From an uncultured Candidatus Saccharibacteria bacterium (lineage in GTDB: Bacteria > Patescibacteriota > Minisyncoccia > Phycocordibacterales > CAIZLB01): a stretch of 64,000 nucleotides of DNA. The notes below the pieces were generated by a model. The model made no database searches. It was not told where the DNA came from and saw only the letters and a program-made list of their open reading frames with translations. The position numbers were made by a program, and so were the translations under genes. Where the stretch lies: contig CAZSLF010000004.1 in NCBI GenBank assembly GCA_964607805.1, positions 7,477 through 71,476 on the forward strand. Reading direction: 5' to 3'. This document shows, one piece after another, positions 2,998 through 56,854 of this stretch. Within the stretch, counting starts at the first letter, position 1; each line of letters begins with the position of its first letter.

Positions 2998-4045
2998 AGG
3001 CACTTTTCATTCTATTGTAGATGATAAGTGAATAGTCTTGTTGTATTTTTTCAAGGTCTGCGAAATCTTTACCTTCAATCATGATACAGAAAGAGTAAGA
3101 ATCTTCATTGTTATTCAAATATACTAGGCCACACTCATGTAACTGTCTTAGCATAACTTTTTTTGTAATTGGATCTTCTACGGTTCGCTCTGCAAACTTA
3201 TGGGCAACCTTTAGAGATGGTGGTAAGTGCTTCATTGCACCATTTCTATAATCAACTTTCGTTAAAGTCTCAAGAATTTCATTTGAATATTCTGCTGTTA
3301 AGTAAGATGTATTATAAAGTAGTCTAAACAAGTTTGCATATGTTCTCGGCGTAACCAGAATTTCATCTGAACCATCAGACAATTTATACTTTATTCCAAC
3401 CGCGTTTAAAATTAAATCAAAGTATCCAGGAGGTAGATTTTCGTATAAAATTTGAGCAGATATATTATCTGAGTATATAACTGATCTGTCTATTAACTCT
3501 TTAATTGTGTAAGTTACGCCAAGCACGAGCTTGTCACTAACCTCAATGCTTTGATTATCGTTTAGAGACGCTCCTCCGTCATATTTTATATTTTTTGCGA
3601 GTATTTCAGGTTATATCTCAGCTTGCTTATAGCTTGCGATAATTAAAGGTAATTTTAATAAACTAGCTCCATAGAAGGATTCGGTCTCGTTTACACCAGC
3701 AAAATGCGTTGAGCGTAAATCTCTAACTAAGACTCCAAGTCGTGTTGCATTTCCACTGGAGATATTTTTTTCTGTAAGGGCCTCTAACTCAGTTTCTAGT
3801 CTAGCCAATTCTGTTTTTTTTCTGCTATTGTACTCACAGTTAATATTTTGTCGTATAAACTGTAGGTTTGACGAACAACCTTCAACTTCATCAGTTATAT
3901 GGTATCGACTTGAAAATATTGCAGATGTAAAAAACCATCCAATTACAAAGCCAACTATTAGTACTGAGGCAACTAAAAAACAAATTGACCTTTTATTTTC
4001 CTTAAAGTTTAGGGAAGGCTTTTGAAGTAAGTCTTTGTATTTCAC
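2990..4045 (-). pseudogene. Class A beta-lactamase-like serine hydrolase interrupted by one in-frame TAA
   Basis: ORFs 3611..4045 and 2990..3526 are in the same frame. The N-terminal part has a TM segment and an SxxK motif (GASLLK). The C-terminal part has an SDN motif (YSDNISAQIL). My translation of 3527-3610 is open (PEILAKNIKYDGGASLNDNQSIEVSDKL), so the only break is the TAA at 3611-3613. Confidence 0.65.
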
Positions 4046-5447: not shown

Positions 5448-5912
5448 TTATTCTGGAACCTCGCTTGTTTTGGAAACTATTATGAATAGATCTGTTCTAT
5501 TCATTGTTACCGCTGAGCATTTTGTTGTGGTAAAATAGTCGCCAGCGACTATAGTTGTGCACGTACAGTGTTTCAAAGGTTCTGTGTGTTTTTTCACTAA
5601 AATTGTAGGGTGATAACATGTTGTAAAAAATTTTAGCCTCAATCCATTTGCTAAAAAATATTCTTCACAATAGGTTATCAATTCTTTTGAGGATTGATCG
5701 GAAATACCAACAATTACCTCGTTATTAGGGTTTTCTTCAAGCTCTGCCCTTTGGCGTAAGATATCACTCAAATTTGTTCTTTCGAGTAGACTCCATCCGT
5801 CTGCTTGAGAGTAAAAAGAGACTTTAGGAAGTTTTCTGTGAAGATATGCAGTCAGTGTCCTATCTCTCGACTGCAACAAAACAGTTGGAGTGTTCATGGT
5901 AGTAGGGTGCAA
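5448..5912 (-). CDS. Hypothetical protein
   Basis: 154-aa ORF followed by a hairpin (ccccttc/gaagggg) at about 5400-5436. An alternative start at MNTPT (5897) is possible. Confidence 0.45.
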   Translation of the reverse strand: MHPTTMNTPTVLLQSRDRTLTAYLHRKLPKVSFYSQADGWSLLERTNLSDILRQRAELEENPNNEVIVGISDQSSKELITYCEEYFLANGLRLKFFTTCYHPTILVKKHTEPLKHCTCTTIVAGDYFTTTKCSAVTMNRTDLFIIVSKTSEVPE

Positions 5913-6018
5913 TGGGTGGGTGGTTTACAGAATTTGGGAGTATTTCAGAATTCCTGACCGGCAGAAAAATCCGTCAAAAATAGTATCAGAAACCCTTAAT
6001 TTAAGCTACAATTATAAA

Positions 6019-53823: not shown

Positions 53824-54429
53824 TTACGTGAACTTGTAACTGGACAAGTCACTAAAGTCGGGGACCAGCACTGGCTTTTGGAGCCAGAACTTTCTCATCG
53901 CTATGAGTACAAGTACTCCACAGTAGACTGCACAGCAAGAAGGGTAGAATGCCTCCTCGATTGACCAATCTTCGGCACCGATTACACTGAGAATGTTTGC
54001 CACAAAAAAGCCAAAGTAGACAGGGAGCGGCGCAGACCAGGGGTCTTTAGCAGTGTCTCTCAACTGGGGTTCACCGGCTATTACCACTGCAATCGAACTC
54101 AAAATTGTGGCAGTCCTAGGACCGGATAGGATCCAGCCAATAAGACATATAACAACCATAATGGTCACTCTTGTCTCGACTTTAGTCCAGGAAAAATTTC
54201 CGGATTTTGCGATGTATATGGTAATCCAGAAGCTACCGAGTGTGTAGGCGGCTACCATCAGAAAATTTCCTTGTTGGATAATTAGTGAGATGACAGCAAT
54301 AGCATCGAGTGTTGCCCACAAGAGCCAGGTGGCAAGATTTTGCTTGGTTTGCCCTTTGCGTATTTGATTACGGAGCACGAAATACAAGTAGATCGCTAAG
54401 CAGGCACTCAAAATGGTGTAAATATTCAT
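53824..54429 (-). CDS. PQ-loop-like 6-TM membrane protein (paralog 3 of 3)
   Basis: 201 aa. Its minus-strand promoter is TTGACA-17-TATTAT at about 54478-54506. Confidence 0.6.
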   Translation of the reverse strand: MNIYTILSACLAIYLYFVLRNQIRKGQTKQNLATWLLWATLDAIAVISLIIQQGNFLMVAAYTLGSFWITIYIAKSGNFSWTKVETRVTIMVVICLIGWILSGPRTATILSSIAVVIAGEPQLRDTAKDPWSAPLPVYFGFFVANILSVIGAEDWSIEEAFYPSCCAVYCGVLVLIAMRKFWLQKPVLVPDFSDLSSYKFT

Positions 54430-54525
54430 TAGGGAGTCGGGTTGGTAGGGAACAAGGTTTCAGAAGTGAATTCTGCATATATAATATGACAGATATAGGG
54501 GTTTGTCAATGTGGCTATTACAGCA

Positions 54526-54553
54526 TTGACTTTTCCACCATTTAATGTATATT
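54526..54553 (+). promoter_or_regulatory. Sigma70-type promoter of the small ORF
   Basis: TTGACT (54526-54531), a 16-nt spacer, then TATATT (54548-54553). The predicted TSS is only a few nt before the ATG at 54564. Confidence 0.5.
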
Positions 54554-54563
54554 ATTAACCACT

Positions 54564-54695
54564 ATGAAATCAACACGTAGTCAATTCAATAAACGAAATA
54601 ACGGCCGAACAGGCTTTGCCTTTTCTGTTGCCTCACTTATTTCGTATGACTCTGCAAATAAGACAGGGTTCTGGCGCTGTGTTCAAAGATTTTAA
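54564..54695 (+). CDS. Unannotated 43-codon ORF (candidate exported or precursor peptide)
   Basis: My translation is MKSTRSQFNKRNNGRTGFAFSVASLISYDSANKTGFWRCVQRF. It is absent from the ORF track, presumably because the track lists nothing shorter than 60 aa. It is bracketed by a promoter and a terminator and lies just upstream of an ABC exporter. Confidence 0.4.
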   Translation: MKSTRSQFNKRNNGRTGFAFSVASLISYDSANKTGFWRCVQRF

Positions 54696-54720
54696 AGATA
54701 TCTACTCTTTTAGGACTTTG

Positions 54721-54746
54721 AACGCCGCGTCAATCGCGGCGTTTTT
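54721..54746 (+). terminator. Intrinsic terminator between the small ORF and the ABC gene
   Basis: aacgccgcg-tcaat-cgcggcgtt stem-loop followed by a T tract. Confidence 0.8.
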
Positions 54747-54801
54747 AGTTCTTTAGCTCATTACAATTCAACAACCAACCAAATAAAGAGGAAGACATGT
54801 T

Positions 54802-56598
54802 ATGTCAGATCCAAAAATCAGCAGAAGTCAGGGAGGAAATCCATTGACCTACTTGTTCGCCAAGACATGGCAATATTCAATCGGAAATAGAATTAAACTC
54901 GGGATTTGCTGGGCGATGTTTATCTTCGCCGAAACTATCCAGGTTTTAGTCTACCCACTTATCTGGGCAAGGATAATGAACGTAGTACAAGTGGAAGGTA
55001 TTACAAAGGAAAGCATCAGCTCTCTTTTGTGGATGCTTGGCGCTTTGCTGCTAGCAACAATTACCTTCTGGTGTATTCATGGTCCAGCAAGGTTGCTTGA
55101 GAGGTCGAACGCATTTAAGGTGCGGTTGAACTATCGAAAGTATTTATTGCGTGGCGTTATGACATATCCCATGGACTGGCACTCGAATAATCAGTCAGGA
55201 GACACGATTGATAAAGTTGAGAAAGGAACTTCAGGATTGTATAGCTTCTCAGAAGAAACATTCGAGGTGATCTATTCAATTGTGAGATTGTTGATCAGCT
55301 ATTGTATGCTGTTTTACTTCTTCTCGCATTCTTCGTACATCGTGTTAGCCATGATGATAGTGATGTTTTTTATTGTCACAAGATTCGACAGGGTGCTTAT
55401 CAAGCAATACAAGGAATTGAATAAAAATGAAAATCAGGTTACTGCTAAAGTATTCGATTCCATTAGCAATATTACAACCGTAATTATTTTGCGAGTTGAG
55501 AAGCTTGTGTTCGACGCAATCATAAAAAAAGCGGAGGAGCCGTATAAACTCTTTATTAGAAATAATAATCTAAATGAGCTTAAGTGGTTTCTGACTTCAG
55601 TTTGTTGCACAACCACAGTTATTGTCGTCATGGGCGCATACTTTGTGTCCAATATAGGTGTAGCCGGCGGGGTATTAATTGGAAATGTCTGGCTGCTGTA
55701 TCGGTATCTTGGAAATATTACCGAAATATTCTCACGATTCACTCATATGTACGGTGGCATAGTTAAGCATCGTGCACGTGTGGCTAATTCTGAAGAGTTG
55801 ATGGAACAATCGACGAATGAAAGTTTTTCGAATCATGTTCTGCCGACTAATTGGAAAGAGCTTAGGGTCCAAAATCTTAACTTCACATATGGTGAGGGTA
55901 CGGATCTAAACCTGAAAAATATTGAGCTTACTTTGAAGCGAGGCGAAAAAATCGCTTTCATCGGAAAGAGTGGTAGTGGAAAAACCACATGCTTAAGGGT
56001 GATGCGAGATTTGTACCATCCTCAAAGTCTAAGTCTATATGTCGATGGAGTGAAAATTGATCAAGGTTTCGACGGAATATCCAGAGCAATAGCTTTGGTG
56101 CCGCAGAGCCCTGAGATCTTCGCCTCAACTATATTGGAAAACCTTACGCTTGGCGCAGAATACTCAGAAGAGTTTATTCTTCGATTTACTAACATGGCAT
56201 GCTTCACTGAAGTTGCTCTGGCTTTGCCAAATAAGTTTGATTCCACAATCAATGAAAAGGGAGTCAATCTAAGTGGTGGTCAGCAGCAAAGGTTAGCTCT
56301 CGCAAGAGGGTTAATTGCTTCAAGTGATAAAGATATAGTCCTTCTGGATGAACCAACCAGTAGTTTGGATGCAGATACGGAACGGAGGATTTACGAAAAT
56401 CTTCTTCGAGAATTCGGAGATAAGACAATTGTTTCTTCGGTACACCGTCTGCATCTTCTTCCTCTCTTCGATCGTATTGTTATGTTCGATGATGGAAGAA
56501 TTGTCGGCTCTGGGACTTTCGAAGAAATGTCCTCGGGCTGTACAGAATTCCAAGACCTCTGGAGAAGATATGAAGGAGGGTCGGGAATGGTTGATTGA
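54802..56598 (+). CDS. ABC exporter (fused TMD-NBD half transporter)
   Basis: 598 aa. It has a 6-TM N-terminal domain, Walker A GKSGSGKTT, signature LSGGQQQRLALARG and Walker B IVLLDEPTS. Confidence 0.9.
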   Translation: MSDPKISRSQGGNPLTYLFAKTWQYSIGNRIKLGICWAMFIFAETIQVLVYPLIWARIMNVVQVEGITKESISSLLWMLGALLLATITFWCIHGPARLLERSNAFKVRLNYRKYLLRGVMTYPMDWHSNNQSGDTIDKVEKGTSGLYSFSEETFEVIYSIVRLLISYCMLFYFFSHSSYIVLAMMIVMFFIVTRFDRVLIKQYKELNKNENQVTAKVFDSISNITTVIILRVEKLVFDAIIKKAEEPYKLFIRNNNLNELKWFLTSVCCTTTVIVVMGAYFVSNIGVAGGVLIGNVWLLYRYLGNITEIFSRFTHMYGGIVKHRARVANSEELMEQSTNESFSNHVLPTNWKELRVQNLNFTYGEGTDLNLKNIELTLKRGEKIAFIGKSGSGKTTCLRVMRDLYHPQSLSLYVDGVKIDQGFDGISRAIALVPQSPEIFASTILENLTLGAEYSEEFILRFTNMACFTEVALALPNKFDSTINEKGVNLSGGQQQRLALARGLIASSDKDIVLLDEPTSSLDADTERRIYENLLREFGDKTIVSSVHRLHLLPLFDRIVMFDDGRIVGSGTFEEMSSGCTEFQDLWRRYEGGSGMVD

Positions 56599-56854
56599 TA
56601 CCTAAGGGTATTAGAAAGCGCTCTGGAGAATAGCGTAAAAACTCCTCGCTCCAAACCAAACGGTTTGGAGTTTTACTTTTTCTTTTTTTTCGTGATTGAC
56701 AATCTCAAACCCAAAGCGCACCATATTACCATCGGCATGTTAATAACTGTCGGGCTGTCAATGTTGCTCTACTCGAGCGCTTATTGCGAGGGTGATGTTT
56801 CGCCCATGCAATGCATAATGCTGATAGGAACCTGTCCTTAAGGAGGATTGGAAA

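Follow-up and report, generated by a model that had tools for sequence, protein, structure and literature searches.

A probable ribosome-dependent transcription attenuator upstream of an ABCB-type exporter gene in Patescibacteria

Introduction

In Bacillus subtilis, the genes of the ABCB-type exporter BmrCD are preceded by bmrB (yheJ), a 53-codon open reading frame (ORF) with three alternative stem-loops, and induction by lincomycin, chloramphenicol and erythromycin depends on translation of bmrB (PMC4191407). Here we report an element of related design in a 64,000-nucleotide (nt) stretch of DNA from an uncultured Candidatus Saccharibacteria bacterium (assembly GCA_964607805.1, contig CAZSLF010000004.1, positions 7,477 to 71,476), hereafter the window. 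A 43-codon short ORF (sORF) and an intrinsic terminator lie directly upstream of a gene for an ATP-binding cassette (ABC) exporter, and the segment 54526–54801 (positions are those of the window) is probably a ribosome-dependent (leader-peptide) transcription attenuator of this single ABCB-type exporter gene. As in BmrB-BmrCD, the short ORF stands directly upstream of an ABCB-type exporter with which it would be co-transcribed, its 3′ part holds alternative anti-antiterminator, antiterminator and terminator structures, the exporter would be expressed by read-through, and the translating ribosome is the proposed sensor. The two leaders nevertheless show no detectable sequence relationship. The sORF described here is leaderless or nearly so, whereas bmrB has a 5′ untranslated region of ~70 nt; the terminator lies past the stop codon here and inside the ORF in bmrB; and the regulated gene encodes one half-transporter, presumably working as a homodimer, where BmrCD is a heterodimer. 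The phylum is also different (Patescibacteria), and antibiotic induction, which has been shown for BmrB, would be expected here by analogy.

Leaderless polycysteine sORF attenuators have been documented in mycobacteria (bioRxiv 10.1101/834739). There too, an unannotated leaderless sORF is the first cistron, and its translation sets downstream expression, as we propose for the present locus. The mycobacterial sORFs carry runs of Cys codons, sense cysteine and belong to cysteine-metabolism genes; in contrast, the sORFs described here have at most one or two Cys codons and precede an exporter gene, and a covarying terminator/antiterminator forms the core of the element. The three-state logic, with exclusive hairpins, a leader peptide and an intrinsic terminator, is that of trpL, pheL and hisL and of the macrolide-inducible mef(E)/mel leader (PMC4335068). 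Unlike these, the present sORF has neither a run of regulatory codons nor a Shine-Dalgarno (SD) sequence, and the first hairpin strand includes its start codon.

The order of small ORF, hairpin and ABC exporter is also found in loci for bacteriocins and for ribosomally synthesized and post-translationally modified peptides (RiPPs), which use PCAT, SunT and LanT exporters. A preliminary description of the window took the sORF for such a precursor. The locus differs from bacteriocin and RiPP loci in having no C39 peptidase domain, double-glycine leader, or modification and immunity genes, in the lack of purifying selection on the peptide, and in that the hairpin belongs to a covarying switch overlapping the ORF.

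Patescibacteria, or the candidate phyla radiation (CPR), are mostly uncultured and have reduced genomes with few recognisable regulators; to our knowledge, almost nothing is known of their gene regulation. The element precedes one of the most widespread ABC exporters of these bacteria. It represents a family not described before, within a known kind of regulator, and is essentially unannotated and without an Rfam family. The class of mechanism is well known; the leader family is new, occurs widely in CPR bacteria and can be tested directly.

A short ORF and a strong terminator precede the exporter gene

A promoter scan identified a sigma-70-type promoter, TTGACT-16-TATATT, at 54526–54553 (+ strand), matching 10 of 12 consensus positions; an alternative −10 hexamer, TATTAT, ends at 54555. 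Judged from its sequence, this promoter would drive the sORF, the remaining leader and the ABC gene from a predicted start site. The sORF, identified by ORF calling and translation, occupies 54564–54695 (+ strand), starts with ATG and encodes MKSTRSQFNKRNNGRTGFAFSVASLISYDSANKTGFWRCVQRF. The ATG lies 8–10 nt past the −10 box (10 nt counted from TATATT), and the mRNA would therefore be leaderless or nearly leaderless; no SD sequence precedes the sORF of the window. An intrinsic terminator was found by a terminator scan at 54720–54746 (+ strand), with a 10-bp stem (54720–54729 paired with 54735–54744; seven G-C pairs) followed by a U-run. The free energy (ΔG) of the terminator core was −17.2 kcal/mol, and that of the extended stem (54713–54751) was −22.8 kcal/mol. 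The leader RNA as a whole (54558–54760) folded at −60 kcal/mol versus −40.5 ± 3.9 kcal/mol in dinucleotide shuffles (z = −5.05), and none of 200 shuffles was equally stable. Since the + strand contained no promoter-like site between 54556 and 54802, the exporter very likely needs read-through of the terminator. The preliminary description had already named the sORF with its peptide, the promoter with a near-leaderless transcript, the GC-rich terminator and the lack of a convincing exporter promoter, which were all borne out by the sequence, and had suggested a possible dependence on read-through, which is supported.

We compared the window with 14 orthologous ABC loci, whose ABC proteins were 50–64% identical to that of the window. 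A scan of genome contigs yielded three true orthologues, and one locus came from a Saccharibacteria metagenome-assembled genome. The 370–730 nt upstream of the ABC gene contained no called gene, except in L098, where the upstream region measured 132 nt, and in L102 and L103, where the sORF itself was already called as a gene. A leader with a short ORF and a strong terminator directly before the ABC gene was present in 12 of the 14 loci. The exceptions were L098, in which the ABC gene has its own promoter and lies between a MraY-like gene and FtsW, and L002. We analysed 11 leader-bearing loci in detail, with ORFs of 34–46 codons, and set L100 apart as an outlier with a 51-codon ORF that lacks the (Q/K)-x-N motif described below.

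A promoter equivalent to that of the window was located 7–15 nt before the sORF start in L001, L003, L008, L094, L096, L097 and L099. The start codon lay 7–11 nt past the −10 hexamer in the window and in all of these except L094 (15 nt). In L092, L093 and L095, ~90 nt of extra structured leader preceded the sORF.

A further scan of metagenomes with the ABC alignment returned 80 loci that had to be discarded as orthologues: they encode distant ABC transporters (22–36% identity), the patterns used being the generic ABC signature. They served only as negative controls, and an nhmmer profile of the leader found no match in them. Pattern scans of viral contigs gave one chance match only, in a GC-rich coding region (L101).

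The frame is kept open while the peptide changes

The sORF frame was open in all 11 analysed loci. The probability of an open frame in dinucleotide shuffles was 0.05–0.42 per locus, and the product was 9e-11, a value that overstates the significance because the loci are not fully independent. The remaining two frames contained 0–6 stops each across the 11 loci. On this sequence record, we regard the sORF as a genuine, selected feature. Its start codon was invariant, and M1 and N9 were the only near-invariant residues. Codon 7 was CAA or AAA (Q/K) in 10 of the 11 loci, and codon 9 was AAU (N) in 10 and GAU (D) in one. Codons 7 and 9 stood at identical distances from the start codon in all loci, even where ~90 nt of extra leader preceded the start.

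The peptide, in contrast, was almost unconstrained. Mean column identity was 30%, and length ranged from 34 to 46 residues. In the six window-type leaders, differing codons comprised 384 nonsynonymous versus 33 synonymous changes, and codon positions 1, 2 and 3 were conserved alike (0.70, 0.63 and 0.66), the third being no more variable than the others. Amino-acid conservation upstream of orthologous ABC genes was the check that the preliminary description had set beforehand for its peptide, and the peptide was not conserved. At the C-terminus, the conserved-looking RCVQRF became HDVISI or HFVLSI where the terminator changed, indicating that C-terminal conservation tracks the sequence of the terminator arm. 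Cys codons numbered at most one or two per sORF and were absent from L001 and L096. A frame that is kept open while its amino acids are unconstrained suggests an ORF whose translation, not product, matters.

Among ~15 billion collected proteins, nine of ten sORF peptides had no entry, and the tenth had one without a name. When 5.8 billion proteins were searched with a profile of the peptide alignment, only four relatives appeared, all unnamed, indicating that this sORF family has essentially never been called as a gene.

The end of the ORF and the terminator arm form a covarying switch

The final sORF codons show complementarity to the terminator 5′ arm and to a few bases upstream of it. In the window, the antiterminator 5′ strand (region 2, GGCGCUGUGUUCAAAG, 54673–54688, + strand) comprises codons W37–R42, and the 3′ strand (region 3, CUUUGAACGCCGCGUC, 54716–54731, + strand) overlaps the terminator 5′ arm. 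Because the antiterminator and the terminator share one strand, they are mutually exclusive. The antiterminator hairpin (54672–54732) had a ΔG of −25.2 kcal/mol, versus −17.2 kcal/mol for the terminator core and −22.8 kcal/mol for its extended form.

Region 2 shifted in step with the terminator arm, with GGCAUGAUGUU facing AACAUCGUGCC in L001 and GGCAUUUUGUUU facing AAACAGCGUGCC in L096; RCV was replaced by HDV or HFV exactly where the terminator arm of these two loci differs. In a covariation alignment of the six window-type leaders, 86.5% of cells in the antiterminator helix were paired, and 7 of 16 pairs were altered on both sides. None of 500 shuffles matched the observed covariation score or the percentage paired, and pairing fell to 33–56% when the partner strand was slid by 1–3 columns. 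The terminator helix was paired in 100% of cells, with four covarying pairs. For the five window-type loci that were scored, the duplex between the ORF 3′ end and the terminator arm was more stable than in shuffles (z = −3.5 to −6.5); z was −2.2 to −3.3 in L097, L093 and L095, and the duplex was weaker in L094 and L092.

Region 2 can alternatively serve as the 3′ strand of a long-range helix, P1. The P1 5′ strand (54565–54583, + strand) includes the start-codon region and codons 1–7, pairs with 54672–54694 in minimum free energy (MFE) predictions, and is the proposed anti-antiterminator. In predicted folds of the RNA before the terminator, region 2 paired with the sORF 5′ end in the window, L099, L003, L093 (AUGUCUAA with UUAGACAU), L094 and L095, and with an adjacent hairpin instead in L001, L096 and L097. 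The predicted P1 encloses two hairpins. P2 (54593–54645, + strand) lies within the sORF; a GC-rich hairpin was predicted at the equivalent place elsewhere, and P2 showed compensatory changes between L003 and L102. P3 (54648–54670, + strand), also from MFE folds, lies within the sORF directly 5′ of region 2; every window-type locus had a hairpin here, with outer pairs that covaried among the window, L099 and L003. Few nucleotides were invariant outside the switch helices.

All six window-type leaders shared the alignment position of the stop codon (UAA or UGA), which lay a few to ~10 nt past the core of region 2. In the window, the stop codon begins 4 nt past region 2.

We searched the window and nine related loci against Rfam at the gathering score and at permissive E-values and found no riboswitch, T-box or leader family. 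For the window, nothing covered the leader even at E ≤ 10, the only hits being chance matches to the terminator hairpin.

A model for ribosome-dependent attenuation

The switch strands overlap the ORF, with region 2 in codons 37–42 and the P1 5′ strand in codons 1–7, and the position of a ribosome can therefore decide which fold forms. In the model that we favour, transcription would begin on the sORF AUG or a few nt away from it. If no ribosome loads, P1 would form around P2 and P3, region 2 would be sequestered, and the terminator would form, leaving the exporter off. A ribosome that reaches the stop codon smoothly would cover region 2, because the stop lies only 4 nt beyond it, and the terminator would again form. 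A ribosome slowed or stalled early in the sORF, possibly near the conserved (Q/K)-x-N codons 7–9, although this site is a guess, would keep P1 open and region 2 free. Free region 2 could then capture the terminator 5′ arm as it emerges, so that the antiterminator forms, RNA polymerase reads through and the exporter is expressed. Because the position of the ribosome sets the fold, the ribosome would be the sensor, and impaired translation the signal. By analogy with BmrB, the inducing signal is most likely a ribosome-targeting compound; a shortage of a specific aminoacyl-tRNA is possible. The locus points to ribosome-sensed induction, possibly by translation inhibitors released by hosts or neighbours. 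The L003/L102 type of leader comes from Saccharibacteria, and cultivable members that carry it would offer an experimental handle.

Several points weigh against this model. The transcription start and translation of the sORF are both inferred, and none of the analysed sORFs has a usable SD sequence. Leaderless initiation is impossible in the three loci with ~90 nt of structured 5′ region. No run of regulatory codons or recognised arrest motif was found in the sORF, and N9 and Q/K7 match no nameable motif. When a ribosome was placed on nt 1–42, thermodynamic MFE folding still retained the terminator, and the model must consequently rest on co-transcriptional kinetics. In the L092–L095 group, the stop codon lies 13–20 nt beyond region 2, which makes the off state of a ribosome running to the stop less clear. 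The covariation alignment of six leaders is a small sample, and the incomplete independence of the loci bears on the frame statistics as stated above. The last such point, a junction of classic riboswitch architecture, is taken up below.

Three more specific sensing mechanisms were considered and rejected. A rare-codon stall, as in BmrB, does not fit, because the only rare codons of the window sORF (CGC-UGU) lie inside region 2, where a pause would favour termination and not induction. Cysteine sensing through the conserved UGU is contradicted by L001 and L096, which have no Cys codon, and this UGU sits in a covarying helix. T-box-like tRNA sensing found no support: Rfam gave no T-box match, and neither a specifier loop nor a T-box sequence was seen.

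Alternative explanations

The strongest alternative, although an unlikely one, is a riboswitch or factor-binding RNA in which the P1-P2-P3 junction is an aptamer for a metabolite, an ion, a tRNA or a protein, and the ORF is incidental or secondary. Binding would shift the stability of P1 and thereby decide whether the terminator or the antiterminator forms. Riboswitches typically have such a design, with P1 closing the junction and its 3′ strand, which can instead join the antiterminator, feeding the expression platform. Compensatory changes that keep P2 and P3 while amino acids change would be expected of an aptamer, as would the conserved CAA-NNN-AAUA stretch in the predicted unpaired junction; the promoter-proximal 14 codons are 100% identical in nucleotides between L003 and L102, with no synonymous changes, which would also fit, as would the lack of an SD sequence before the sORF. 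An aptamer would, however, leave unexplained the frame that is open in 11 loci (~1e-10), the invariant start codon with its fixed spacing to codons 7 and 9 despite extra 5′ sequence, and the conserved position of the stop codon. Known aptamers have more invariant nucleotides than the few found here outside the switch helices, and Rfam gave no match. In addition, stabilised P1 corresponds to the off state, an odd logic for an exporter induced by its ligand.

It is very improbable that the sORF product is secreted by the adjacent exporter, whether as an unmodified bacteriocin, as a signal or as a RiPP-like precursor, with the terminator setting the ratio of peptide to exporter. The gene order, kept in 12 of 14 loci, would suit such a system, and one pair of loci resembles it further. 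The ABC genes of L003 and L102 are 98.3% identical, with 94% identity at 4-fold degenerate sites. Between L003 2750–2806 and L102 ~3043–3099 (codons 15–33), 18 of 57 nt differed (P = 3e-9 at the neutral rate); in this pair, the only such pair available, codons 15–33 diverged ~5 times faster than 4-fold degenerate sites. The promoter, codons 1–14 and the segment from region 2 through the terminator were nearly invariant, and the fold was kept by compensatory changes. Invariant flanks around a fast central segment resemble the leader and hypervariable core of RiPPs and bacteriocins, and it is because of this divergence alone that the idea of a cargo peptide stays alive; a short recombination tract or diversifying selection could account for it. 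The window and L007 showed no such excess, with ~7 differences in 276 nt versus 4% at 4-fold sites.

Other evidence runs counter to an exported peptide. There was no purifying selection on it; the parts conserved at its two ends fall in RNA helices and covary with the terminator; neither a double-glycine leader nor any other could be recognised; and the exporter has no C39 peptidase domain. The loci have no modification, immunity or regulator gene in common, the exporter family is widespread in Patescibacteria and occurs in housekeeping and cell-wall neighbourhoods, and the orthologues L098 and L002 have no sORF at all. The preliminary description was right about the reality of the ORF and about the exporter's need for read-through, and wrong in making the peptide a precursor or cargo; its layout is better explained as a regulatory leader peptide in a transcription attenuator. 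More generally, a small ORF followed by a terminator and an ABC exporter should not automatically be taken to mean a bacteriocin locus. It is similarly improbable that the sORF has a dual role, serving both as attenuator sensor and as a secreted or signalling peptide of episymbiotic CPR bacteria, with flanks that are conserved, a core that diversifies fast, as between L003 and L102, and export by the adjacent ABC transporter. If so, synthesis of the exporter would be tied to translation of its own cargo, and the locus would represent a new, unmodified class of peptide-exporter module.

Least likely is a small intracellular or membrane protein acting in trans, such as an accessory subunit of the ABC transporter or a regulator (like AcrZ or CydX) behind a terminator that is simply partial: conservation of the ORF and its close linkage to the ABC gene would fit, but the sequence of the ORF is almost unconstrained, its length varies between 34 and 46 residues, the peptides, inspected by eye, have no hydrophobic stretch long enough for a transmembrane helix, and the covarying antiterminator would be left unexplained.

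The exporter gene and other features of the locus

The regulated gene (54802–56598, + strand) encodes a 598-residue ABC exporter with a transmembrane and a nucleotide-binding domain, as the preliminary description had stated; it is an ABCB-type half-transporter. ABC_membrane and ABC_tran were its only Pfam domains, a C39 peptidase domain being absent, and its best solved structural relatives were ABCB-type exporters. NCBIfam models of bacteriocin exporters scored far under their cut-offs and aligned only to the transmembrane and nucleotide-binding part. The protein had more than 1300 relatives at E ≤ 1e-50, mostly ~55–64% identical; the few with a name were assigned to the Patescibacteria group or Candidatus Paceibacterota. 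A terminator scan placed the terminator that closes the sORF-ABC transcription unit at 56648–56671 (+ strand).

A strong purine-rich SD sequence precedes the ABC gene in every orthologue; in the window, it is AAAGAGGAAG (54785–54794, + strand). Between the terminator and this SD sequence, 10 of the 12 leader-bearing loci carried one to three copies of an (A)GUUCUUU motif, scored with a degenerate pattern. The window copy, AGUUCUUU (54747–54754, + strand), lies directly 3′ of the terminator. The other sites were L001 2928 and 2937, L003 2893 and 2935, L008 2951, L094 1990, L096 2447 and 2457, L099 1501, and L100 2387 and 2413. The motif was not enriched across the whole window (8 matches versus 5.5 expected). 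It is complementary to the purine-rich SD sequence (AAAGGA or AAAGAG), and in 6 of 10 loci it supplied most of the predicted SD pairing; the SD pairing probability was within about one standard deviation of that of shuffles. The motif is possibly an anti-SD element or an extension of the terminator base.

In the window, the neighbours of the ABC gene are housekeeping genes (RmuC, L21 and RecR) and genes for unknown proteins. Neighbours in the orthologous loci were likewise housekeeping genes and differed by locus, and no modification, immunity or regulator gene was common to them. L098, which lacks the sORF/terminator leader, has the order MraY-like-ABC-FtsW together with an S11 D-Ala-D-Ala carboxypeptidase; L100 has the order S11 peptidase-ABC-MraY-like; and Ddl lies upstream of the ABC gene in L008. 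The cell-wall genes in these three loci hint at a substrate related to the cell envelope and not at a drug or peptide. L002 (JABMQF010000124.1), a contig binned as a Candidatus Woesearchaeota archaeon, carries a CPR-type ABC orthologue (50% identity) with no leader; mis-binning or horizontal transfer could explain its presence there.

Back-to-back with the sORF promoter is a near-consensus divergent promoter, TTGACA-17-TATTAT (54481–54509, − strand; 11 of 12 matches), which presumably drives a 201-residue ORF (53824–54429, − strand) with no Pfam or NCBIfam match. A second open frame of 36 codons, MTLQIRQGSGAVFKDFKDIYSFRTLNAASIAAFLVL (54646–54756, +1 relative to the sORF), overlaps the 3′ half of the sORF and the terminator. 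The +1 frame is stop-free across the sORF in the window, and this is not kept in other loci.

The ~90-nt extra element lies between promoter and sORF at L093 ~2180–2274, L095 ~2215–2301 and L092 ~2225–2310. It is well conserved between L093 and L095 (CCUGACUUUU.GUCAUUA…GUCCGAAAGG.C…GGUAAUCAAA.UCGUAAAAAAUG), includes a hairpin with a GAAA tetraloop, and had no Rfam match; it may be a second regulatory input. Also in the flank of the L093 locus, 5886–5940 (+ strand) resembles the type III hammerhead ribozyme, though below threshold (RF00008; 34.7 bits versus a gathering score of 48.5, E = 4e-4).

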